A stretch of 63,528 bases of DNA, the filler included, from Hausera hauseri (Eukaryota): assembly GCA_046269625.1 (NCBI GenBank). It is 13 parts of 13 records of this genome, joined end to end, with 100 filler letters (N's around TTAATTAATTAA, not from the genome) between each part and the next. Parts side by side here need not be neighbours in the genome. Positions count along the whole stretch, not along the records: positions 44,666 to 49,325 come from JBJURY010485909.1; 12 more parts are not named here. One strand, 5' to 3'. Made by a program: the position numbers and the translations under genes. The notes beneath the pieces are model-generated. The model saw nothing but the letters and a program-made list of their open reading frames with translations. It was not told the origin of the DNA and did not search any database. This document shows, one piece after another, positions 18,167 to 63,528 of the stretch. Every line of letters begins with the position of its first letter. Within the stretch, counting starts at the first letter, position 1.

Positions 18167-21100
18167 GACAGAGGGAATTTTTCAGGACAACCTGGCTGAG
18201 CTCAAAATCCATAAAGTGATTATGAAACTGGAGGCCACATACATCAATGTTGATGGCGAAGAATCCGATAGGGCCCTCAAGACCAAAAATAGACCCATAT
18301 TGGAAAACACCAGTATAGCAGAACGGATGCAAGAGGAGCACGAGAAGCTAATCCGTGAAGCCGGGAAGAGCCAGGATATGAAGAGCGGATGGACTCTGGC
18401 AACCGTCAAGAGATTGCTTGTGTATCTGCACAAGTATTCTCCCATGCGGAGCAGTTCATATATTCAGCTCCCTGATTGGATCGCTAATAAAAAAGAATGT
18501 GTCAGTGTCCATAATAATGACAACATATGTTTCATTCTATCAAAACTCGTAAAGATCAAAATCATGCTTCACGACTTTAGCTATATAAGGATGTGCAGCA
18601 CAAATATGACTTCCATTAGTGCATCAAGTTCCCTCCATCCATAAATGAAGTTAAAAAATTCAGAAAAGTCAATAACATGTCCATCAATATATTGAGATTG
18701 TATGAGGATGATAAATTCTATCCCCTACAGATATGCGATATAGAATTGGAAGATCATAAGGATCTGTCCTACTATACGATGGAGAAAAGAAACATTATGT
18801 TTGGATCCAAAACTTTGAGCGGTTAGTCAGATCACAAATTACGAAACATCATGGACAAATAGAAATATGTAAACGATGTTTGTCCCATTTCAGCGGTGAT
18901 GTAGCTGTGGAGAAGCTGAAACAGCACAAGATGTACTGCAACAACAATTATTGTATCAGGCCAGATTTTTCCAAGGAGGATTACATTGAATTCAAGGAGT
19001 TCGAGAAGAAGATGAAGTTTCCAGTAGTTATCTATTGTGACTTTGAAGCGATCATGCACCCAGTTCAGAGTTGCAGTCCTAATCCCCAACATCGCAGCAC
19101 AACGGCATACCCACATCATGAGCTCTCATCATATTGCATGTATACCAAAGGACTGGACAGTGAACCAGTCCTTATTCAGGAGTCCAGGCGCAGCAGCTAA
19201 TTTCATGAAACGACTTGAAGACATGGCTCATAGGATTGGAGATATGCTACAGCAGCATAAGGATACAATGAACATGTCGAAGCAACAAGAAGAATGGCGC
19301 AAGGCAAAAGCATTTTACTTGTGCTCCAAATCATTCACTAAGGATAATTATAAAGTCAAGGATCATTGCCATTTTACAAGCAAATATCGGGGCGCAGCAT
19401 GGAACAACTGTAATATACGTTGAAAAACATGTACATATGAGCCGGTAGTGTTCCGTATTCTCGGTGCATATTATTCCCATTTCATTGTTAGGGAATTGGG
19501 CAGCATCGAAGGAAATATTAACGCGATCCCTAATAGTGAGGAAAAATACATCACATTTACGAAACATGTTGGAAGAATCAGGCTTCGCTTCGTAGATGGT
19601 TTCCATTTTGTGTCGTCTTCACTTGACAGTTTAGTGAAGAACTTCCCGGCAGAAGAACCATGATTGCGTAATATCATTAGAAAACTGGATGAGACCTCAT
19701 TGCCGGCCAAGAAGGATTTTTACAATATATTTTCTGATTGCGATATTAATAATATGGACTACCAGCATGCTCAGAACGTCTGGCATGTATTGAAATGCCG
19801 AATATTAGGAGAATACAGCGACATATACCCCAAGACGGACGTGCTGCTTCTGACGGATATCTTTGAGAGTTTCAGGGATGTTAAGATAAAGAGCCATGCA
19901 TTGGATCTGGCTCATTTCTTTACGGCTCCAAGGATGAGCTGGGCAGCAGTGCTGAAATATACAGGTGTCCGTCTGCAGATCGTAAAGGATTACGACATGA
20001 TGCTCATGATTGATTGAAGCATTAGAGGTGGAATATGCTAAGTCATTCACCGGTATAGCGAGGCCAATAACACGTATATAACCCAGTAGGATCCATCCAA
20101 GAAATCGTCATATATACCATACCTATATGCCAACAACTTGGATAGATGGGAAATGAGCGCCACATTGCCATATGATAACTTTAAGTGGGTCGAGCATCCT
20201 GAAAACATCCCTATACTGGACCTGGATCCCACTGAAGATACGGCATATATACTGGAGGTAGATATGGAATATCCGGCTTCTATTCACGCAAGGCATCAAC
20301 AGCTGTCTTTCCTCCCTGAGAGAAAGCATCCGCCCCATGGAAAGCATAGAAAGCTGCTCTGCCATCTGGATAGTAGGGAGAGGTATGTAGTCCACTTCGT
20401 AAATCTCCAGCAGGTGGTCAGGAATGGACTCTGTATTACTAAGATCCATCTGGCCCTGCAGTTCAGCCAGTCAAACTGGCTGCAGCCGTACATAGATCTT
20501 AATACGAAGCTGTGGACAAATGGCAAGAACGATTTTGAGAACGACAAGTTTAAGCTGTACAACAACAGCGTTTTTGACAAGACCATGGCGATTATCCATA
20601 ACAGGATCAACATCAAACTGGCCTGATTAGAAGCGAGCAAAGAAGCCCATTGCCAAGCCTAACTTCCACAACAGCACCATATATGCTGAGAACTTGTCAG
20701 CATCTATATGCTGAAAACATTTTTGCAATTCAACAAGCCCATATATGTAGGTATGGCAATACTGGACCTTTCAAAGACCTTCATGTACAAATTCCACTAT
20801 GACATCATGGTCCCTAAGTTCGAGTCCATGCAACTGATGTATATGGATACTGATAGCTTCATCTATCAGATCCATACAGGTGATATTTATAAAAACTTTG
20901 CTAAGTTGGCAGAGCATATGGATACGTCTGACTACACAAAGAAGCATCCGAACTATTCAATCGCCAAGGAAGAAATCCTTGGGAAATTCAAAGACAAGGT
21001 GAATGGGGCAATCATCTAGATATTTGTAGCTTTTAGGTCCAAAATGTATGCCATTGATATATGTGGCCAAGTAAAGAAGCAGACTAAAGGGGTTCAAAGG

Positions 21101-21313
21101 GCGACCTTAGCCAAGAAGATTGGCTTCAATGACTATGTGACAGTTCTGCATGAGTAGACTCACATTATTTCAGAGATGCGAAGGATCTAGTCTAGAGATC
21201 ATAACATTGATAGTGTAACATTAGAGAAGAAGAGACTAGATTGGATGGATGACATGAGGCAGATCCTGGGTGATGGGATCCATGCACTACCTCACGGACA
21301 TGTGGCATTGTAA
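18167..21313 (+). pseudogene. Polinton/Maverick protein-primed DNA polymerase B (EndoVII/HNH-containing type), decayed copy 1
   Basis: KSGWTL, NNDNICF, HYVWI, IYCDFEA, KDHCHFTSKYRGAAWNNCN (EndoVII-like), KTDVLLLTDIFESFR, YANNL, KLYNNSVFDK, YMDTDS, LGKFKD, LPHGH. Many stops and frameshifts. Confidence 0.9.
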
Positions 21314-41123: not shown

Positions 41124-44100
41124 AGTAAGGGGAAAGTGGGAAGTCTGTATCACCCAGGGGGTGTGTGAGAATGGATAAATCGATAGTGCACATGTGCTAA
41201 CCGCTAGTGCACATGGAGCTGTAGACAGCTGCACTTTCGGTCAACCAGCAGATCGTGTGCGGCCAGGAAATCTGGGCCAATTATAAGTAGGGGGAAAACT
41301 GGCAGTCTGCCTAACCCCCCTCGGGGGCTGTGCGCGTCGATAAATCGATAGTACACATGTGCTAATCAATAGTGCACATGGAGCACTATCGATCGGTAGT
41401 GTGCTAGGCAACGGTGCCCCTAGGCACCGTTGCTATGCACATTTTTGCACATTTGACAAATCGATTGCTGCACATTGCACAATTGATCGAATCGATCGGG
41501 ACAAAGTATTAATCGATAGTGCACATCAGTGCACATAGATTAATGCACAGTGCAGGTGTGCTTCACATATGCAAGTGTGCGAAAATCAATAATATCGGAT
41601 TTCCAATAATCCCAATATTGATGATTAGCACCCGGCACCGGGTGCAATCGGAAGTATACATGATGGACTGTGTGTTTGTGCAGTTAGAATTTAAATATAT
41701 TGATTGGTTTTCGAATAATTGCTAACTGAGGGAGAACCCGCATAGGCCTTTCCGGTATAAATTGAAAATCAATAATATCAATATGGCACATATACTGGCG
41801 GATGCAGTACTTGATTTACTATAGTTCAATGCAATACTCGAGTGAGGTGTGCTCTTGGATACGGTTGCCAAGGCACTTTTTCACTTTTCACATTTTTATC
41901 ATTGTGCAGCGTAGGATTGATGAAATCGATTGGGGTCAAGTGCATGCAGATAGAGCACATCGAGATGCACCTTGATATATACTGTGCAGTGCAAAAACAC
42001 GTGCAAGTGTGAAAAAAATCAATAATATCGGTTTTCCGATATTTCCAATATTGATGATTAGGACATGTTATCGGGTGCAATCGATTGGAAATACCATGCA
42101 CTATATGAATGTGCATTTGGAATTTAAATTTATCGAGCCTATTTCGAATAATATCGATCCAAAGTGCAACTGAGGCAGAATTCTCATGTTTTTTAGGTCC
42201 CAAGGAAGCATAATTCGATATTATAATTAGCGGGGACAGATAGGAAATCGCACATGGCGATCTCGAATCTCAAGCCAGATATTCGAATTTCGAATATTTT
42301 CAAGCTCAAATACCGAAGTTCGAACTGCTCGAAAAATCTAACAACGGCCTTCGATTCCTCTTATACGAAAACCTCCTTATACGTAAAATTATTCCATAAA
42401 AATGATCGATATAGATATAAAATCAATATTTCGAATTAAACAAAATGTGCATTTAAAGCCCAATAAAGCGGAAATCAATAAATCTATAAGTGGGGTGGGA
42501 CAGGAAAGCATATATGCAGAATCGGAATATGATGTTAAATAATCGAATTTGAGCTTTCAAGTCGAATATTTAGCTATTTGAACTCGAATATCGGTCAAGC
42601 ATGCATTATTTGAAGAATCTGATCACTGCATTCGAATCCTCATATATGAAAAGCTTAAATTTGGCGCCAACATGCATTTAATTTAATTGATGCATTAAAA
42701 CAAAAGTGCGTTAAAACCAATCAATAAGCGGGGCAGTACATTGTGATATGCATATATTTTTTCATTATTTCCAAATTCACTTCAACGAATGGTGAGTTTT
42801 TAATTGTGCTCCTCAAATAATTGGTTGATTTTTAGATATGCAAACTTTACGGAGAATGCTTGGCTCAAATCCACGAGCCTGAAAATTGTCACAGTATTAT
42901 GAAAAAGTACTTTAGTCATATTTACAACAGGGTTCAGTATTATATATGCCCTACATGTGAGGTAGTGTGTCAAACAAATTATGAAGACTTTTACAATGTC
43001 CATAAACAGAACTTGATTTCCTTCACCAAATCGAAAAAACAAATATTCAATACCAATGTGCAAATAACGACTTTCGTGCCAAAGGCAAATCAAGGATTCA
43101 GTTTATATGTCTATTGCACATGTGCAATACACAACCCTTAGAATTGCCACAATACTATGAGGAGCTATTATGGACACAAATTCAATAGGATCCTCTATTA
43201 TATTTGCCCAGTATGTGAGACTGTATGTGATGGAAAATACGTACAGTTTTATGAAGATCACAAACATCATTTAACTAACTTCGCATCAAAGTCAAAGAAG
43301 ATCATCTTTAATGAACATATGCCAGTTACACTGCCTGCAGTACAGCCAGATGCAGGACTAAAACGCGCATCAGGCGTAGCGTCTCCATCAAAGAGTCAAT
43401 GAAAGCGGCCAGTTGCTGCTGCAGCATTAAAGAGGAAATGCCGCAAATATGTTATTCATGCAACTGGTCAAACAACCATCAAGGAGTTCCTGGAGTACCC
43501 AGAGGAAGAAACAGAGGGAATTCTCCAGGCCAACATAGCTGAGCTGAAGTCCATTAAGGCTAATATAAAACTTGAGGCCACATACGTCAATGTTGATGGC
43601 GAAGAGTCCAAAAGGGCCTTGAAGACCAGAAATAGGCCCATTTTGAAGCCACCAATATAGTAGAATGGCTGCATGAAGACCATGCAAAGCTGACCCGTGA
43701 AGTCGATCAGAGCCAGAGTAAGAAGAGCGGATGGACTATGGCAACCATCAAGAGTGCTTGCGTATGTGCACAGATTTTCCCCCATGCGGGGTAGTTCATA
43801 TATTTAGCTTCCTGATTGGATCGCTAATAAAAAGCATGTGTTAATGTCCATAATAATGACAACATGTGTTTCATGTATGCCATTCTATCAAAACTGGTAC
43901 CGGATCAACATAATGCTTCAAGAGTTTGGTAGTATAAAGATGTGAAGCACAACTATGACTTCCAATGTATCACATTCCCTCCATCCTTAGATGAAATTAA
44001 GAAGTTCAGTCAAATCAACAACATATCAACCAACATCTTTGGATTGGATGAGGAGGATAAATTCTATCCCTTGCAGATATATGATAATGAATTGGAAGAT

Positions 44101-44565
44101 CATAGGGATCTGCTCCTACTAGACGATGGAGAAAAGAAACATGTTTGGATAAGGAATTTTGAACGTCTAGTAAGATCCCAAATTACGAATCATCATGGAA
44201 AAATTGAGATATGTAAGCGATGCCTGTCTGATTACAGTGGCGATACTGCAGTGGACAAGCTTGCAGAGCACAAAATGTACTGAAACAAAAATTACTGTAT
44301 CAGGCCAGAATTTCCCTAGGAGGACTATATTGAATTCAAGGAGTTCGAGAAAAACATCAGGATCCAAATAGTTATCTATTGTAACTTTGAAGCTATTCTC
44401 AGACTAGTTTAGACATGCACTCCCAGTCCTCAACATAGCAGTACAACGGTATATCAATATCATGAACTCTCATCATATTGCATGTATGCCAAAGGACTGG
44501 ACAGTGAACCATTTCTATTCAGAGTTCCAGGTGCAGCAGCACATTTCATGAAACGACTTGAAGAC
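41124..44565 (+). mobile_element. Polinton/Maverick left end: two tandem AGT-starting termini (41124, 41286), palindromes, subterminal repeats and pPolB N-terminus
   Basis: AGTAAGGGGAAAGTGG and AGTAGGGGGAAAACTGG are related to the reverse complement of 58622-58810. Degenerate direct repeats with periods of about 430 nt (41570/42000) and about 260 nt (42230/42490). Confidence 0.8.
42789..44565 (+). pseudogene. pPolB copy 2, N-terminal part: ATG-only exon, 44-nt intron, two Cys/His repeats, terminal-protein and protease-like region
   Basis: ATG|GTGAGT...TTTTAG (42792-42835) splices in frame to ICKLYGECLAQIHEPENCH. Continues through KSGW, NNDNMCFMYAILS and IYCNFEA, and is homologous to copies 1 and 3. 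Confidence 0.8.
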
Positions 44566-44665
44566 NNNNNNNNNNNNNNNNNNNNNNNNNNNNNNNNNNN
44601 NNNNNNNNNTTAATTAATTAANNNNNNNNNNNNNNNNNNNNNNNNNNNNNNNNNNNNNNNNNNNN

Positions 44666-45100
44666 ATTTTTAATTTGATTAATAATCGGTTCATAGTCCA
44701 CTGTCCGAATACCGAGTACAACAATTTTCCACTGCTAAACACTGACACAGAGTGGGCAAAACGATGTCAATCTCAGTGCAGGAAACAGTTCGGGTTCATA
44801 TGTACATTCAGCAGCGGTCATTGCTAGTTTGTACAGATTGATTGTTTGGTGGTAGTCTAACTGAATCGTTACCGTTATTGATTGGATTTTGTCAATGACA
44901 ATCCCGAATGGTAGTAGTTTTTCAGCTGTGATTGGTTTGCGACAATTCATAATACGACATTTTCAAGATGGAAATACGATGTATCTAAAATCCGGTGGAC
45001 ACTTGAGGACGTACTGCCTCGGCTTCCATAGATTAAAAGGCAGTGTGTTAATGTCACACTCGGTAACATGTCCACGATAGTTGATATTAGCTAAAATTAT
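44666..45100 (-). pseudogene. TATA-binding-protein (TBP)-fold protein in a Polinton
   Basis: ILANINYRG...YIVFPS*KCRIMNCRKP...IQSITVTIQL..TINLYKL...CTYEPELFPALRL...VSV/FSSGKIVVLG corresponds to both TBP repeats. One stop (44965-44963), one frameshift (about 44737), and a start probably mutated (ATA at 45100). Confidence 0.75.
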
Positions 45101-45195
45101 GGAAACAGTGTTTATACTATAACTATTTATATGCGTGTAATACGATTATAAACAAATAATGTGGTGCGCAAAGGTTGTATTATTACTATTATTAG

Positions 45196-45830
45196 ATGAA
45201 GCTGCAGAATGATGCCATTTTCTAGATTGCAGGCCTCAGTACAAGTGGCAAAACACACTTTGTGTGTAAACTATTGAAGAACTACCATGAGATGTTATAT
45301 TCACCGCGGTATAATCATGTATACTGGCATCAGGGTGTTGGTGATGATAATGATAAGTCCGGTTTGACAAAACGGGAATTTTGTAAACTAAAATCATCGA
45401 TAACGTTAATTATTGGGTTTGATGAGAACTGTTCAGAGAGATTACGCAACGAAGCAATCGGACTTCAACAACCTGTCCACAAAGATTGCACGACACCGCA
45501 ATGTGATGGTTATTTTCATTACGCAAAATATGTTCCATCAGGGCGGCCAGCATCGAACAAGTAATCTAAGCGTACACAATTTGGTGTTGTTCAAAAATCC
45601 CTGTGATCAGACTAGCATTGATTATGTTGCACGAAAAGCATTTCCTCACAATCGAGCCTATTTTATAGATGCATATCATGATACTACGACCGAACCACAA
45701 GAATACTTGTTCATCGACTTTACACAACAGTGTCCCGGTGACATGCGTCTACGAACAGACATTTTTATCAGAAAGGTGGTATATGTGCCTATCAACAAAT
45801 TCGAAAATCGACGACATGATTGTGATAAAA
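45196..45830 (+). pseudogene. Polinton A32/FtsK-like genome-packaging ATPase
   Basis: IAGLSTSGKT (Walker A), LIIGFD (Walker B), LSTKIARHRNVMVIFITQNMF, RTSNLSVHNLVLFKNP, YLFIDF..MRLRTDIF. Stop and frameshift present. Confidence 0.85.
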
Positions 45831-45832
45831 AT

Positions 45833-46015
45833 ATGAAGAATTTCCGCAAAACAATAGTTAAACGTAAACCTACTACCAAGCTGGTGTCCGGCGGCAAGAA
45901 ACATGTATCAAAGCGAACCATGGCTACAGTCAAGCAATTAATCAATTGTGTGTTTCATCGAACAACAACAGCAGCAGCTAGACGCAATTTACCGTCACAG
46001 TGGCAACGGTTATAA
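45833..46015 (+). CDS. Small basic protein, possibly a virion core protein (currently in frame with the ATPase)
   Basis: K/R-rich MKNFRKTIVKRKPTTKLVSGGKKH with an adenain-like xxGG site, located between the ATPase and the pX-like gene. Confidence 0.35.
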   Translation: MKNFRKTIVKRKPTTKLVSGGKKHVSKRTMATVKQLINCVFHRTTTAAARRNLPSQWQRL

Positions 46016-46021
46016 ACAACT

Positions 46022-46369
46022 ACGTCTCATCAACATCAATACGTCCAAAAAATGCAATTCAAACGTAGTCAGAAGTACTTCATTGCATAGCTCAATGCAC
46101 CTACGACACATAAGCGAAACATGCTACAATCGTTTGTAGCAGACGATTTGATGGAAATTTTAAACAATATCGTTGTGGGTCACGTTGACATTGGCAATGG
46201 AAAGCGGAATTTACTATAGTATTGAAAAGGATTCATTTACCTTGCCAACGCTCGAAGTAAACGAATGAAACGAGAGGTCATGTACCAGCAAGACGGCGGA
46301 TTCCTTAATGCAATTCTACCGATTGTAACGTCATTACTAGGTGGACTCATTGGTTCTTCAGCAGCATAG
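46022..46369 (+). pseudogene. Polinton/adintovirus pX-like (membrane-active amphipathic peptide) precursor
   Basis: ...LMEILNNIVVGHV...KRMKREVMYQQDGG|FLNAILPIVTSLLGGLIGSSAA*: a Q.GG-FL cleavage-like motif plus amphipathic tail. Internal stops, and ACG where ATG is expected. Not in the ORF track. Confidence 0.65.
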
Positions 46370-46480
46370 TATAAACAATGACGGTAAGTATATGATGATT
46401 CGGCGAAATGGGTGCATGGTTTTCATCTTTCTGTCCCAGTTTACCGAATCTTTCATTTACGTTTCTTTCTAATTGTTATA

Positions 46481-47546
46481 ATGCAAGCAAAACCGACACC
46501 ATCGACGGCAACTATGGGCGATGTGTGGTTCGACCGGCGTCATCCCGTCGGCTATACTGGCGTCGACAAACTGGCAAAGACTGTCACACAGACTCGGCAA
46601 CAGACCCAACGTTGGCTCCGGGAAACAGTTTGAATGGATCCTAAACAAATCGATAAGACGGCGGTTTCCAACTTGTGCATACCGTGCTGCTGGTGTAAAT
46701 AATGTATGGCAAATTAATCTGATGGAAGTGATTTCGAACGCCAGCATCAATGATGGGTATAGGTAGGTGCTGACATGTGTTGATGAATTTAGTCGTTTTG
46801 CACGTGCAATTGCTGTAAAATCTAAATCCGGTAAAAAGATTGCCGACGCTGTTCAGACACTGATACAACAACAACAACCGAAGCATTTACAAACGGATTT
46901 GGGTAAGGAATTCTACAATGTCCACATTGCAGCGGTCTTGAAACGGTTCGGCGTAAACCACTACTCGGTGTTTTCCCAATATGAGGCTGAACTCGTTGAA
47001 CGATTTAATCGAACATTGCGCGGTCGCCTAAACAAATTCATTACGAAGCAAGGCAACAAACACTGGGTTGATGTAATGCCGGATATTATTTACGCATGCA
47101 ATCATTCTACACATCGTGGCATCAATGGATTATGGCAGGTTGACGTAATCGATGATTTGGACATGTGGCTTTATCAAAACTTAACATAACGACAACAGGC
47201 AATTAAACACCCAAAATATAAAATCGATGCTTACGTACGTATTTCGAAAATAAGTACGACGCCATTCATTAAGAATTTCAATCAGAACTGTAGAGATGAG
47301 GTTTTCCGCATTTCGGCGATCAACACAAAACAAACACCTGTCATGTACGTTTTCGAGGATGAAAACGGTGAGGAAATAAGCGGTAAATTCTACAAACAGG
47401 AACTGCAGGTACTGCCCGAGAAACCCGATGCATATCGCATTCACGAAATTCTACGTTCACATGGCAAAGGTTCGAATAAACAATATCTCGTCAAGTGACA
47501 CGCATACACTGCACCGAGTTGGATTTTTGCATCGCAGATTGAGTGA
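46481..47546 (+). pseudogene. Polinton retroviral-type integrase with C-terminal chromodomain
   Basis: WFDRRHPVGYTGVDKL, WQINLME, LTCVDEFSRFA, LQTDLGKEF, VERFNRTL, YVRISK, GKFYKQELQ, YRIHEIL...QYLVK*..SWI. Confidence 0.9.
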
Positions 47547-48608
47547 TGAGCATTTATTTGGAACTTGATAGTAACAGATCATTATCACAACATACCAACG
47601 AAAATGACGGCAATATAGTTAAACGGTTTACCATACACTTGGACCAACCGGTCGATTTGCGGCACGGAGCCTGGGAATTGGCTTTGACGGAATATACATT
47701 TACGTTTTCAACAATGACAACAGTCAGAACAGTGGTATTTACTTTACCCGACAAGAAACGAACCTTATTTCAAGTTGTTTGCGGACAATCTGACACAATA
47801 ACCGATATACTCTTTGAAATTATTCACGACAACATTTCTCAGTTTATGCTTATTTTTCAAACTATCGTATGAAACTAATGCCTCAAAATCCAATGGAAAT
47901 GCAGTTTGAATCCATAGCTGATGGTTAGGCATGAGGTTTTCAATTAGTCAATGTACACTCGGAACATCTACGGCTAGGTGGACATGTTATTATTGGTAAA
48001 AATTTGGACCTTTCATCCAATGCGGAATCCGATATTATAGTAAAGTGGACTAAGTCAGAATCAGTCTTCCGCTCATATATTATATCACACAATTTACTAA
48101 TGAATACGGAACTGAAATTGTGTGAGTACGTCAAGAAAACAGCTACATTAGCCGTAAAGACATGTGAAATAAACGCATATGGCCATATTTCGACTATACT
48201 ACATGAAAATGTTACATATTTTGCCTTTGATGAATTATTGGTTCGGAATCTGGGTTTTTCAAAACACAAATTCTATCAAAACATTGTTGGACGATATATT
48301 ATTGCCAAATACAAAGCACAACTCTGGAGCATTTAATAGAATCACCATTTTAACGGACTTAACCGTATCCGTACTCGTTGGTGGAGAACGTAAACAACTA
48401 CTGTCTTCTATCGAAATGGATTTTGACACGTACAAAACAACGGGTGAAACTGTTCGCGTTAATATGCTCCGACCCATGTACTTATGATTGTCTCACAATA
48501 TTGTGCAGTATTTCCGTTTATATGCTTGATGAATTTTGGGAACCCATTAAATTTCCGTTAGAGTCAACGACATATTTGACGTTACATTTTCCACGCCATC
48601 ACCGATAA
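47546..48608 (+). pseudogene. Polinton minor capsid (penton) protein, paralogue 1
   Basis: N-terminal IYLELDSN...FTIHLDQPVDLRHGAWELALTEY and C-terminal TDL...LVGG..QLL...RPMY...PIKFP...YLTLHF match the Polinton penton termini. Frameshifted. Confidence 0.7.
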
Positions 48609-48647
48609 TAAACAAACTGCACAATCATCATTGACATCATTGTGAAT

Positions 48648-49325
48648 ATGAGTATTTATATGGTGTTGCTGAGCAATAGTTGTCCGACGACTCGTCCGCA
48701 CAATTCAGCTAGTGAATGCGTTGTTGATTGGAACAATCCTTTGGATTTATCTGGAAAATGGGAGGATGCACTAACGGAATTTAACTTTCACTATGCACCG
48801 GTGACATTGAAAGATAGTATGAAAATAACGTACAAAAGGACTGTTACTGAAACCAAAACACATTCTTGTCCTCTGATACTTACTAACAATAAAATAACAG
48901 TTGGAAAATCGGCCATTTGAACGACCAAAGCAAATTACGGTTCACATGGTAAAATCGGTGTCTTTATTTTAGATCAAAACTTACATGTTATGGTAGATTT
49001 TGAATTTACCGTTACCTTTGAGTTCTCTGAAATGGCGCAGAAATTTGGATTCAAAAATACAGGGTACAAAGATAAACATATTAAAAGTGAATATGTGATT
49101 GGCCCAAGCTTAAGTCCCGTATATTACCAGACAACTGTGAAATTTACCTATACAAAAGAAAGGGTGTCAACGTCATACGTATCGATTGGAGACAATGTCT
49201 ATTGCGATTCTGAATCAAATCTGTGTCAACACTTTTCAAAGCAAAAGCACAAGGCGATATTTAAAGTTTTCGAGTCAGATGCAAATGGGTACATTAAATT
49301 TGAACTGGCTAAGGATATTGTCGAC
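48648..49325 (+). pseudogene. Polinton minor capsid (penton) protein, paralogue 2, cut by contig end
   Basis: MSIYMVLLSNSCPTTRPHNSASECVVDWNNPLDLSGKWEDALTEFNF has the same L.SN...N....PL.L.G.WE.AL.E signature. Confidence 0.7.
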
Positions 49326-58812: not shown

Positions 58813-59124
58813 CGTCATTACAAACTGACGTGGGAAGAATATAATATCCATTTTTGCAGAGATTTCCTCATGCGAGACATTGACACTATGTAGGACATAT
58901 GTGAAGCCACGTTCTACGTCAAGAATCAAGCTGATGGGCGAAAGAAAAAGATATTTAACATTACATTGCCAGAATTACGAATATGTAGATATGAATGTGG
59001 CAAATTGGTAGCTAGATTAAAGAACATTACATGTATTTATCGTGAAAATGGTTTACACTGTGCTTATAAACAGTGTCTAACGTTATGTCCAAGTTATGTA
59101 AATAATGAAATAAATGTTTTATAA
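58813..59124 (+). pseudogene. Cys-rich unknown ORF, 5' end removed by the adjacent Polinton terminus
   Basis: About 100-codon frame RHYKLTWEEYNIHFC...CRYECGK...CIYRENGLHCAYKQCLTLCP with one internal stop, convergent with the RING gene. Confidence 0.35.
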
Positions 59125-59258
59125 AAATAGTTGATTTTATAAGACAAAAAACAGTAAAAACATGTATTAAAAACTAATCACATAACGGCTTCGTTACTGT
59201 CATATTCACATTCTGTGTCATGCCAGAGATCATGTATGGTCTTTATCAGACACCATAC

Positions 59259-59456
59259 TCACAACACGTACAGACACTGATCTTCTGCATCTTGTATAGC
59301 GACATAATCGCATTTTGTCCTGCATTTTGGGCATGAAATTTTGCAACATAGCCATTTCTGATGACACCCCACACAAAAAGTATGTGTGTCGCAAGTTGCC
59401 ATACGCATCGTCTTTTCTACCATCTCCTCCGGACAAATTGGGCATGTTTTTGCCAT
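59259..59456 (-). CDS. RING-finger (C3HC4) protein, putative E3 ubiquitin ligase, Polinton-associated
   Basis: CPIC-x13-CDTHTFCVGC..KWL....CPKCR has the complete ligand set. It has the same position and orientation relative to pPolB as 22061-22225. Confidence 0.8.
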   Translation of the reverse strand: MAKTCPICPEEMVEKTMRMATCDTHTFCVGCHQKWLCCKISCPKCRTKCDYVAIQDAEDQCLYVL

Positions 59457-59672
59457 TAGGAATAATGAAATGAATATTAATAAGAAATGACATACTTCAT
59501 TGATTTTTGCATTTGAATTTCAAATTTATTGATTTATTTACTTGGCCTATATAGTATATAATTAGTTTTATTTGATATTATCCCACATTACTTGATCAAG
59601 AATACAACACGATATTTTATATAAGATTTATTAATACAACAATACAACACGTCGTAACAAATACAAAGCTAT

Positions 59673-62600
59673 TCACAGTGCAGCATGCCCGTGAGGTGGT
59701 GTGCTTATTCCATCTCTCAGATTCTGCCTCTTGTCATCCATCCAATCTAGGCTTTTCTTCTGTAGTGTTACTGTCTCAATATTATGATCCCTAGACTGGA
59801 TCCTTTGCATCTCTGATATGACGTGAGTCTGCTCATGTAAAACTCTCACATAATGCGCAAAAGTAATCTTGGCTAATGTAGATCTTTGAACCCCTTTAGC
59901 CCGCTTCTTTACTTGGTCACATATCAATGGCATACATTTTAGATCTGAGAGCCACAAATCTCTAGATGATTGCCCCATTCACCTCGTCTTTGAATTTCTC
60001 AAGGACCTTTTTATTGATAATTGAATAGTTTGGATGATCCTTCGAATAGTCCGAGGTATCCATATGCTCTGCAAACTGGGCAGTCCTGATAAATGTCATC
60101 TGTATGGATCTTATAGATAAAATTATCAGTATCCATATACATCAGCTGCATGGATTTGAACTTGTGGACCATTATGTCATAATGGAATTTATACATCAAT
60201 GTCTTTGATAGATCCAATATTGTCATACCCACATATATCGGCTTGTTGAATCCCAAGGATGTTTTCAGCATATGGATGCTGACCATGTTCTCAGCATATA
60301 TGATGCTGCTGTGGACGTTAGGCCTGGCAATAAGCTTCTTTGTCCGCTTACAGTCACATACTAACTCGATGTTGACCATGTTGTGGATATTTTCCATCGT
60401 CTTGCCAAAAACGCTGTTATTATACAGCTTAAATTGATCTTTCTCAAAGTCGTTCTTGGCATTTGTCCGAAGCTTGGTATTCAGATCAATGTAGGACTGC
60501 AACCACATGGACTGACTGAACTGTAGGGCTCTATGGACCTTAGTAATGTGAATTCCATGTTTAACTGCCTGCTGGAGATTGATGTAATGGACTACAACCT
60601 CTACCTATTACCCAAATGACAGAGCAGCTTTCGTGGCTTTCCATGGGGCGGTATCCTGCTTTCATGGAGAAAAGGCAGCTGTTGATGCCTTGTGTGGATG
60701 GAAGCCGGATATTCCACATCCACTTCCAGTATGTAACCCCTATCTCCAGTGGGATCCAGGTCCAGGATATGGATGTCTTCAGGATGCTCGACCCACTTGA
60801 AATTATCATATTGTAATGGGGCGCTCATTGCATATCCATACAAGTTGTTGGCATCCAGGTNNNNNNNNNNGTATGATATATATGAGAAATCCTTGGATGG
60901 ATCGTACTGGGCCATATACTTGTTGTTGGCCTTACTATATCGGTGAATGGCATGGCATATTCCGCCTCTGATGCCTCTCAATCATAAGGATCATGTCGTA
61001 ATCCTTTATAATCTGCACCATGACACCTGTATATCTCAGCATAGCTGCCCATCTCATTCATGAAGCCGTAAAGAAATGAGCCGGATCCAAAGCATGTCTC
61101 TTCATCGTAACATCTCTAAAACTCTCAAAGACATCTATCAAAAGCAGCACGTCCGTCTTGAGGTATATGTCGCTGTATTCTCCTAATGTTCGGCATTGAA
61201 ATGCATTTTAGGTATTCTGGGCATGCTGATAGTTCTCATTACTGATATTACAGTCCGACAACTAACTATAAAAGACATTCTTGGGCGATAATGAAGGCTC
61301 ATCCAGTGTTTCCCATGAAGTTATGTAGTCATAAGAAAGCACTCCTTTCCTTTTAACCAAATCAAATAATAGGAAAGAATCGCTTCGTCTCCCTGAGTTT
61401 TTCTGCTTGCGAGGTTCTTCACTAAACTATTCAGTGAAGTCGACATGAAACAGAAACTCTCTATGAAGCGAAGCCTGATTCGTCCAACATGCTTAGTGAA
61501 GATGATGTATTTTTCCTCACTGTTGGTGATCACATCAATGTTCCCATCAATTTTTCCTAAATCTAGGACTATGAAATGGGAATCATAGCCACTGAGATTG
61601 TGGAACACTACAGGCACATGTGCGCATGTTTTGCAACGCAGATTGCAGTTGTTGCATGCTGCCTCTCGATATGCACCTGTAAAATAAAAGTGATCCTTGA
61701 ATTTATGATTATCCTTGGTGAAGGACTTGTCGCACAAGTAAAATGATATTGCATTGCACCATTCATCTTCTTGATGCTTTGACATGCTCATATTATCTTT
61801 ATGATGCTGAAGCATGTTTTCAAGCTTATGAGTTATATCTACAAGTCGTTTCATGAAATGTGCTGCGGCACCTGGACCTCTGAATAGAAATGTTTTATTG
61901 TCCAGTCATTTGGCATACATACAATACGATGATAGTTCATTATATTAATATGTCGTTGTGCTGCTATGTTAAGGATTAGGGCTGCAACTGTAAACTAGTC
62001 TGAGAATAGCCTCAAAGTCGCCATAGACGACAATTGGAACCTTGAGCTTCTTCTCGAACTTCTTGAATTCAATGTAATCCTAATTGGGAAATTCTGGTCT
62101 GATACAGTAATTGTTGCTGCATTACATCTTGTGCTCTGTAAGCCTGTCCACTGCTCTATTACCGCTAAAATGAGACAGGCATCACTTACAGATCTCAATT
62201 TTTTCATGATGACTTGTAATTTGGGATCTTACTAGACGTTCAAAATTCCTTATCCAAACATAATGTGTCTTTTCTCCGTCATCTAGTAGGAGCAGATCCG
62301 TATTATCTTCCAATTCATTATCATATATTTGCATGGGATAGAATTTATCTTCCTCATCCAATCCAAAGATGTTGGTTGATATGTTGTTGATTCGACTGAA
62401 CTTCTTAATTTTATCTAAGGATGGAGGGAATGTGATACATTGGAAATCATAGTTGTGCTTCAGATCGTTATATAGCCAAACTCGTAAAGCATTATGTTGA
62501 TCTGGTACGAGTTTTGATAGAATGGCATACATGAAACACTTGGTGTCATTATTATGGACAATAGTGCAAGCGTTTTTCTGCCGAATCCATTCTGTGAGCT

Positions 62601-63528
62601 GGATATATGAACTGCCCCGCATAGGGGAGTACTTGTGAACAAACACAATAAATATCTTGATGGTTGCCAGAGTCCATCCACTCTTCTTTTCCTGGCTCTC
62701 ATCGACTTCAGTAATCACCTTCGCATGCTCTTCATGCAGCCATTCTATTATATTGGTTGCTTCAAAAATGGGTCTATTTCTGGTCTTGAAGGTCCTTTTG
62801 GACTCTTTGCCATCAAAATTGACGTATGTGGCCTCACGTTTCATATTGATTTTAAGGTCTTTGAGCTCAGTCATATTGTCTTTAAGAATGACTTCTGTTT
62901 CATCCTCTGTGTATTCCAGGAACTCCTTTATGGTTGTTTGACCAGTTGCTTCAATAACATATTTGCTGACTTTTCTTTTTAATGCTGCAGCATTAACTGG
63001 CCGCTGCCTTTGGGTTTTTGGTGGAGTCGGTATGCTTAATGGGCCTGATGCGCCTGATGGGTCTGATGCGCGTTTTAGTCCTGAACCTAGATGTACTGAT
63101 GCATCTGGCTGTATAGATGTATCTAGCTGTACTGCAGGCTGTGCTGCAACTGGCTTATGTTCATTAAAGATGATCTTCTTTAACTTTTATGCGAAGTCAG
63201 TCAAATGATGTTTGTGATCTTTATAAAACTGTATGTATTCTCTATCACATACAGTCTCACTTCCTGGGCAGATGTAATAGATGATCCTATTGAATTTGTC
63301 AAAAATAACTCCTCATAGTATTGTGACAATTCTGGAGGTTGTGTATTGCACATGTGCAATACACATATGAATTTCACCTTTGATTTTTCTTTGGCACGAA
63401 AGTCGTTATTGACATATTGGTACTGAATATTTGTTTTTTCGACCTGGTGAAGGAAATCAAGTGCTGTTTATGGACATTGTAAAAGTCTTCATAATTGGTT
63501 TGGCACACTACCTCGCATATAGGGCATA
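59673..63528 (-). pseudogene. Polinton pPolB copy 3, nearly full length including the N-terminal Cys/His repeats
   Basis: YYICP repeats, KSGWTL, NNDTKCFMYAILS, HYVWI, VFHNLSGYDSHFI, LDANNLYGYAM, KLYNNSVFGK, YMDTDN, PHGH. Frameshifts and stops, plus a 10-N gap at 60861-60870. Confidence 0.92.

Follow-up and report, generated by a model that had tools for sequence, protein, structure and literature searches.

A divergent TBP-fold gene family of Polintons and its candidate cognate promoter box

Results

The window analysed here (63,528 nucleotides of Hausera hauseri, filler included, assembly GCA_046269625.1) consists of 13 short contigs joined by N linkers, and the assembly appears to be of animal type because retrotransposon, Helitron, DDE and eukaryotic gene fragments are present in it. 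The contig of interest (44666-49325) is an internal fragment of 4.66 kb, at the left edge of which lies a decayed Polinton gene for a small TBP-like protein, hereafter mini-TBP (44666..45097, minus strand), recognized by its TBP matches, by frame reading and by its family profile (E 4.4e-54). An earlier note, made from the sequence alone, had described a two-repeat TBP-like gene of ~145 codons, which frame reading, Pfam, PDB matches and a structural model bear out. Indeed, the minus-strand frame from 45100 spans 145 codons and contains LANINYRG, IVFPS-stop-KCRIM, IQSITVT and YEPELFPAL in one frame, whereas FSSGKIVVLG, listed with these four motifs in the same note, is not found in a single frame: FSSGK sits in the neighbouring frame, with two compensating frame changes at ~44723-44745. 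The first in-frame stop is a TGA at 44965-44963 and a second main-frame stop (44737-44735) falls inside the off-frame stretch; the ATG found in relatives at the start position (45097-45095) is absent, and the 3′ end is missing where the gene reaches the scaffold linker at 44665, i.e., the contig edge. This copy is broken and would make no protein, and the ATPase and integrase next to it contain breaks as well, so that the gene is decayed like its neighbours, as had been noted.

Four to six public runs carry many diverged copies spanning the whole window contig, and several contigs from public runs bridge the junction between mini-TBP and the ATPase. In four of these runs, the start and stop lesions of the window are lacking from almost every other copy, and many copies differ at the frameshift too, so that the breaks belong to the window's member of a multi-copy family. 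Note that read depth at the contig is not usable as a copy number.

With stops read as X, the gene matches Pfam TBP at E 2.6e-5 (24.4 bits against a cut-off of 22.9) in the C-lobe only, and all 33 matches of a PDB sequence search are TBPs or TBP fusions (best E 4.3e-8). The model predicted from the X-read gene (pLDDT 93.5) superposes on yeast and human TBP with Z 12.1 and an rmsd of 2.6 Å over 140 of 145 residues, the next unrelated fold reaching Z 6.7, and the predicted model of an intact relative (P0002) gives Z 13.6 to TBP, with an rmsd of 2.5 Å over 146 residues. At the level of predicted structure, the two-lobed TBP saddle encoded by the window gene, once its lesions are read through, is thus confirmed.

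The rest of the contig is made of Polinton genes, in agreement with the earlier note. An A32/FtsK-type packaging ATPase in two frames (45196..45805, plus strand), 58% identical to the ATPases of TBP-bearing Polinton loci and belonging to a family that matches Pfam Pox_A32 at E 1.7e-6, lies head to head with mini-TBP, its ATG at 45196 being 98 nt from 45097 and hence within the 100 nt that had been stated. It is followed by a small conserved basic ORF, c4 (46043..46354, plus strand; family match E 3e-27), a relative of which resembles the adenovirus protein-X family Adeno_PX weakly and below the cut-off (E 0.005), by an rve integrase interrupted by a frameshift and stops (46469..47540, plus strand; Pfam rve E 6.9e-9, 50% identity to the integrase of locus L045), and by two tandem ORF remnants (47543..49325, plus strand), the second cut by the contig end. 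These remnants belong to a family that lies between the integrase and the major capsid gene in related loci; the family gave no Pfam match, and we call it penton-like on the basis of gene order. The contig therefore holds both the packaging ATPase and the rve integrase of a Polinton/Maverick. The pPolB, protease and major capsid protein genes are absent from its 4.66 kb, and are found together with mini-TBP, ATPase and integrase on single contigs in three related loci (L009, L031 and L084), in which the ATPase or integrase is 46-58% identical to that of the window.

A canonical TATA box (TATAAATAG, 45123..45131, minus strand) lies 34 nt before the position at which mini-TBP would start and is presumably a host-type early promoter of this gene, judging from its sequence. 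A motif scan also revealed the box YATAAACR facing mini-TBP 19 nt before its start (45109..45116, minus strand), and, on the plus strand, upstream of the ATPase (45147..45154, ATG at +49), before c4 (46011..46018, ATG at +41) and upstream of the integrase region (46370..46377, ATG at +38). In total, five strict boxes are found on the contig when 1.5 are expected (P ~0.03), three of them preceding the ATPase, c4 and integrase, and the box at 45147..45154 has no majority difference listed in the four runs with other copies.

Elsewhere in the window, three contigs carry pPolB: two of them score best in sum to the TBP-bearing L084 (34-36% identity), and L093, in which no TBP was seen within 5.5 kb, shows 39-42% identity over shorter stretches. 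An exonuclease-like ORF lies tail to tail with pPolB at 58819-62886, a layout also seen in the TBP-bearing L031. Besides this pPolB, two other fragments of the gene, both decayed, occur on separate contigs (18213-21310 and 43651-44562), and laminin-G and armadillo-repeat ORFs are found side by side on one small contig (28366-30318).

Among 36 candidate homologues of mini-TBP, 32 scored E <= 0.001, mostly open and 141-184 aa long, and 64 clusters (at 50% identity) were recovered at E <= 1e-30; longer or fused forms amounted to 1 among 7996 scored candidates, which is weak evidence. When the best 80 of 89 metagenome loci with a TBP-like gene were kept, core Polinton genes were present on 41 of them (many are close relatives, and the counts are not independent), 30 showed only accessory ORFs shared with core-gene-bearing elements, and 9 had neither, i.e., 7 giant-virus-like or cellular near-canonical TBPs and 2 short contigs. 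Conversely, among 21 Polinton loci fetched through their ATPase, 2 carry the mini-TBP family, 1 an unrelated TBP and 18 none that was detected, so that mini-TBP marks a subset of Polintons. Linkage to Polinton genes is thus seen from both sides. The position of mini-TBP within the element varies, and the head-to-head layout pointed out in the window does not extend to the family: mini-TBP and ATPase share a strand in 24 of the 27 related loci that have both. An adenain-like protease and a double-jelly-roll capsid are present in related loci; the capsid profile had no PDB sequence match, and the capsid label rests on ESM Atlas. As a source of animal Polinton controls, IMG/VR was of no use, yielding one NCLDV-like TBP locus and two distant ATPases, with no capsid match.

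Other observations were made on these loci. A different, divergent TBP stands directly before a TFIIB-like ORF (Pfam TFIIB E 7.5e-7, PDB TFIIB E 5.5e-6) in the Polinton L094 (4708-5828, plus strand), where YATAAACR precedes 0 of 5 genes. Since near-canonical TBPs also occur on Polinton-like loci, namely two in tandem after the protease in L075 (2026-3582) and one with PC4 and an integrase in both L079 (1013-2891) and L080 (1-2555), Polintons appear to hold several TBP types. A leucine-rich-repeat ORF follows a YATAAACR box two genes downstream of mini-TBP in L032, L033, L040, L050 and L051, and an ORF of L103 (10673-11950, plus strand), a contig with a Polinton-type ATPase remnant, matches the Pfam Pertussis_S1/Scabin-like ADP-ribosyltransferases.

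Intact family proteins are ~150 aa long. In P0002 numbering, and among 45 sequences, N6, F40, M48, S71, E99 and F101 are present in all 45, R46, E97, N115 and F117 in 44 and R105 in 43. Three of the four intercalating phenylalanines are kept (F40, F101 and F117; the third falls inside the off-frame stretch of the window copy), and the first, in the N-lobe, has no aromatic counterpart. At six positions set by sequence alignment, which we take to be DNA contacts, plant TBP has Val, Val, Thr, Asn, Ile and Leu, and the family shows Asn, Arg, Met, Ser, Arg and Asn almost without exception. The C-lobe departs little from that of cellular TBP and contains the YEPELFP stirrup, in which E97 and E99 align to the TFIIB-contact glutamates of human TBP (E284/E286); these acidic residues of the C-lobe stirrup are described as TFIIB contacts in PMC7221094. 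In the N-lobe, which the same paper gives as the binding surface for TFIIA, TAF1, Brf1 and Mot1, no helix of four or more residues was found in either predicted model (window gene and P0002), where the alignment to plant TBP has gaps. Both N-lobe helices are missing from the window's subgroup, and a second subgroup (L054-L063, L087) keeps them with the basic patch absent. The missing phenylalanine and the partial loss of the N-lobe stirrup could weaken DNA binding.

A TBP tree of 51 rows (23 of the mini-TBP family and three named insect TRFs, with no TRF2 or host-genome TBP), built by a quick method and with long branches, recovers the family as a single clade (SH-aLRT 99), separate from that of the cellular TBPs (97), which includes the insect TRFs. 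In AU topology tests, for which one very long row was left out, grouping with the insect TRFs was rejected (p 0.019), and grouping with giant-virus-like TBPs (p 0.37) or with other Polinton TBPs (p 0.67) was not. Within this sampling, the family is not nested among host TBP/TRF paralogues.

The upstream regions of late genes (ATPase, c4, integrase, penton, pX, capsid, protease and PLA2X; n=100 after de-duplication) were compared with other regions of the elements, 'late' being assigned from gene function and not from timing. An unbiased 7-mer count gave ATAAACA as the top word of these regions (70/100). In TBP-bearing loci, ATAAAC[AG] was present in sense in 84 of the 100 and in antisense in 1, when 6.5 were expected from shuffles; the 16 others have no box within 150 nt. 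Upstream of TBP and accessory genes, the word was found in 15 of 116 regions; for late genes of related Polintons without a detected TBP, the count was 1 of 46. Per locus, the box occurs in 31 of 34 family-bearing against 1 of 15 TBP-less loci; the latter are mostly partial contigs (the greater part of the element is covered in L088, L091 and L100 only), so that TBP absence is not proven in them, and they are more GC-rich on average. The box precedes all 11 late genes of the ATPase-fetched loci with mini-TBP, 0 of 8 in the four loci with unrelated TBP types, and 3 of 5 in another four loci, tallied separately, where the family member is partial or divergent. Exceptions are L071, which belongs to the family clade (0/1), and L064 (0/1), and L068 has the box at 3 of 3 genes though two signature residues are missing. 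These gene-box counts are not independent: the ATPase tree places the family-bearing elements in two firm clades and as single rows without settling how these are related, so that the mini-TBP gene and the box may have been gained once.

The box also shows a defined geometry. An ATG lies at +32 to +41 after 107 of 192 boxes, whereas the seven words used as controls reach 20-26%; the figures are 2 of 29 for TBP-less loci and 141 of 692 at the equivalent spacing for AATAAA. The cytosine at position 7 is strict, as the YATAAA[ATG]R words show no ATG spacing; YGTAAACR is neither enriched nor spaced (9/40), and ATAAACG is accepted at 20 of 96 sites. In some cases the box falls within the coding sequence upstream, where it is read in one or the other of two frames (YKQ/HKR and INK/INV), which suggests that constraint acts on the DNA. 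A TATA box usually stands ~30 nt before the transcription start, and because the ATG peaks at +32 to +41, the spacing fits a start ~30 nt past the box, which would leave a very short leader; no Inr consensus was found downstream of YATAAACR. The mini-TBP gene itself follows another pattern: YATAAACR is present in 3 of its 55 upstream regions, and TATA+Inr in 12 of the 55, against 0 of the 100 late-gene regions, some accessory genes having TATA+Inr too.

Two side observations concern these regions. In a divergent family member with two signature residues changed (L071, 141-1857), YATAAATA replaces YATAAACR before PLA2X and ATPase, a possible specificity switch at this one locus. In addition, L002, L009, L015, L028, L045, L060 and L084 all have an out-of-frame ATG 31-36 nt past the box that precedes the integrase, which points to a small unannotated ORF before that gene.

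Discussion

Our results show a conserved Polinton TBP-fold family that is distinct from cellular TBP and paired with a candidate cognate promoter. The earlier note had proposed that such an element carries its own promoter-recognition factor, and the co-occurring, oriented and correctly spaced box argues circumstantially for this proposal; the role itself we infer. We consider it probable that mini-TBP is an early-expressed element factor that marks YATAAACR, recruits host TFIIB and Pol II, and thereby turns on the late genes. In such a scheme, a host-type TATA(+Inr) promoter would drive early synthesis of mini-TBP, which would bind YATAAACR via its saddle, using three intercalating phenylalanines and the polar Asn, Arg, Ser, Arg and Asn where cellular TBP has Val/Leu/Ile/Asn. 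The intact YEPE stirrup would recruit host TFIIB, host Pol II would start ~30 nt downstream of the box, just before the ATG, and the packaging, capsid and integrase genes would be switched on, while the loss of the N-lobe helices would free mini-TBP from control by TFIIA, TAF1, Mot1 and Brf1. A bolder version, in which a single protein of 150 residues, the smallest TBP yet, runs a two-step transcription cascade in a lineage of animal Polintons by reading YATAAACR and acting through host TFIIB while blind to host TBP regulators, has in our judgement an even chance of being right.

Among the other readings, the most serious, though unlikely, is that YATAAACR is read by the host's own TBP, as a weak TATA variant, and that mini-TBP is otherwise employed, for example as a TFIIB decoy or a repressor of host or element promoters. 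Host TBP could indeed read the box, since the title of PDB 1qn3 gives wild-type TBP bound to a TATA variant, C(-25); moreover, the box-ATG spacing suits any TBP, conservation within mini-TBP is highest in the TFIIB stirrup, and the association of gene and box may go back to one event. However, a host reader fits poorly with the strict C at position 7 and with the missing ATG spacing of YATAAA[ATG]R, and the invariant polar residues of mini-TBP lie on the DNA-facing strands and not on the outer surface. Anecdotally, host-type TATA...TCAGT promoters precede c4 and capsid genes, i.e., the same genes, in the TBP-less L086, L088 and L090 (seen by eye; a regular expression gave 0/46).

It is less likely again that another factor reads the box, either a host Forkhead protein or an element product (c4, c2 or the exonuclease-like ORF), with mini-TBP as one subunit. 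ATAAACA fits the Forkhead consensus RYAAAYA, the herpesvirus ORF24 requires five partners, and the elements carry several conserved ORFs without known function. The strict orientation (84 sense, 1 antisense) nevertheless speaks against this reading, as do the lack of enrichment or spacing of YGTAAACR and the acceptance of ATAAACG; moreover, c4 is also present in TBP-less elements that lack the box, and the two TBP-bearing clades carry different accessory ORFs. That the box serves the upstream gene as a poly(A) or termination signal, being a one-letter variant of AATAAA and often close to that gene's 3′ end, is very improbable and was rejected, since it lies within coding sequence before the stop codon, keeps a fixed distance to the next ATG that AATAAA lacks, and also precedes genes with no co-oriented upstream neighbour (window position 45147). 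The weakest reading, a one-off host TBP/TRF capture that was non-functional and decayed in place, has the broken window copy in its favour and is hardly credible against the mostly full-length and open homologues, the 64 clusters, the separate clade with rejected insect TRF grouping and the other copies that differ at the start and stop lesions, and it was rejected on these family data.

The preferred reading, that mini-TBP marks YATAAACR for host TFIIB and Pol II, provides a named factor and predicts both its 8-bp target (YATAAACR, with TATAAAAG as the contrast sequence) and the distance to the start site. It is the mini-TBP family that is of value here, the window copy being a dead fragment. 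The timing of capsid and packaging genes bears on whether Polintons are active viruses; if the bolder version is true, these 'transposons' schedule capsid-gene expression as true viruses do, and their Pol II promoter system is an orthogonal one. A TBP of altered specificity would also be an experiment of nature on how TATA is recognized, and could serve as an orthogonal promoter tool.

The earlier note had also held that the core genes of Polintons include no basal transcription factor. We found no paper analysing a Polinton TBP or YATAAACR (subscription journals and Repbase reports lay outside the search), but a 'TBP' label on MELD viruses with adintovirus-like PolB is already in print in Starrett et al. 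2021 (legend of Fig. 5 in PMC8502044; legends of Figs 5-6 in bioRxiv 10.1101/697771). In these legends, the label is an entry in the section on non-animal datasets, with no analysis, family or promoter attached, and may or may not refer to the mini-TBP family; the first part of the supplement text of PMC8502044 mentions neither TBP nor TATA. Maverick, Polinton and ATAAAC occur together in one paper, PMC8905726, and the 'TATA' of PMC12220804 is an author name.

Compared with cellular TBP/TRF (PF00352; PDB 1cdw, 1ytb and 1qn3), mini-TBP shares the two-lobed saddle (Z 12-13.6), the C-lobe helices, the YEPELFP motif and three phenylalanines, and differs by its size (~150 aa against a core of ~180), the loss of the first phenylalanine, a polar DNA face, a separate clade, and N-lobe helices that are missing (window's subgroup) or non-basic (L054-L063). 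The TBPs of Nucleocytoviricota likewise lack the eukaryotic N-lobe regulatory signature, according to PMC7221094 and to BFVD matches. In the former source, their adapter positions have diverged and a viral TFIIB is often present, whereas mini-TBP keeps both glutamates and no TFIIB gene was seen beside it; a common origin is compatible with the AU test (p 0.37).

The closest functional likeness may be that of KSHV ORF24 and EBV BcRF1, which combine a viral TBP fold, a polar DNA face and a deviant TATA box at late genes with the use of host Pol II, ORF24 reading the TATT late box (PMC12529657). A deviant TATA box specific to late genes was found here as well (84 of 100 late-type against 15 of 116 accessory regions), BcRF1 is a weak structural match (E 8e-4), and the herpesvirus TBP mimic with its TATT box may be taken as a working model for mini-TBP and YATAAACR. 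ORF24, as presented in the same paper, is a large protein in a six-member complex; it binds Pol II directly and is predicted to be incompatible with TFIIB binding, whereas mini-TBP is reduced to the bare saddle, retains the TFIIB stirrup and has no Pol II-binding N-terminal domain; it is ORF24-like at most, and not a member. Finally, with Polintons/Mavericks (adintoviruses) in general, the elements described here share pPolB, the rve integrase, the A32-type ATPase and, in related loci, the adenain-like protease and the double-jelly-roll capsid, and the TBP-bearing lineage is set apart from other Polintons by an extra basal transcription factor and a lineage-specific promoter box.
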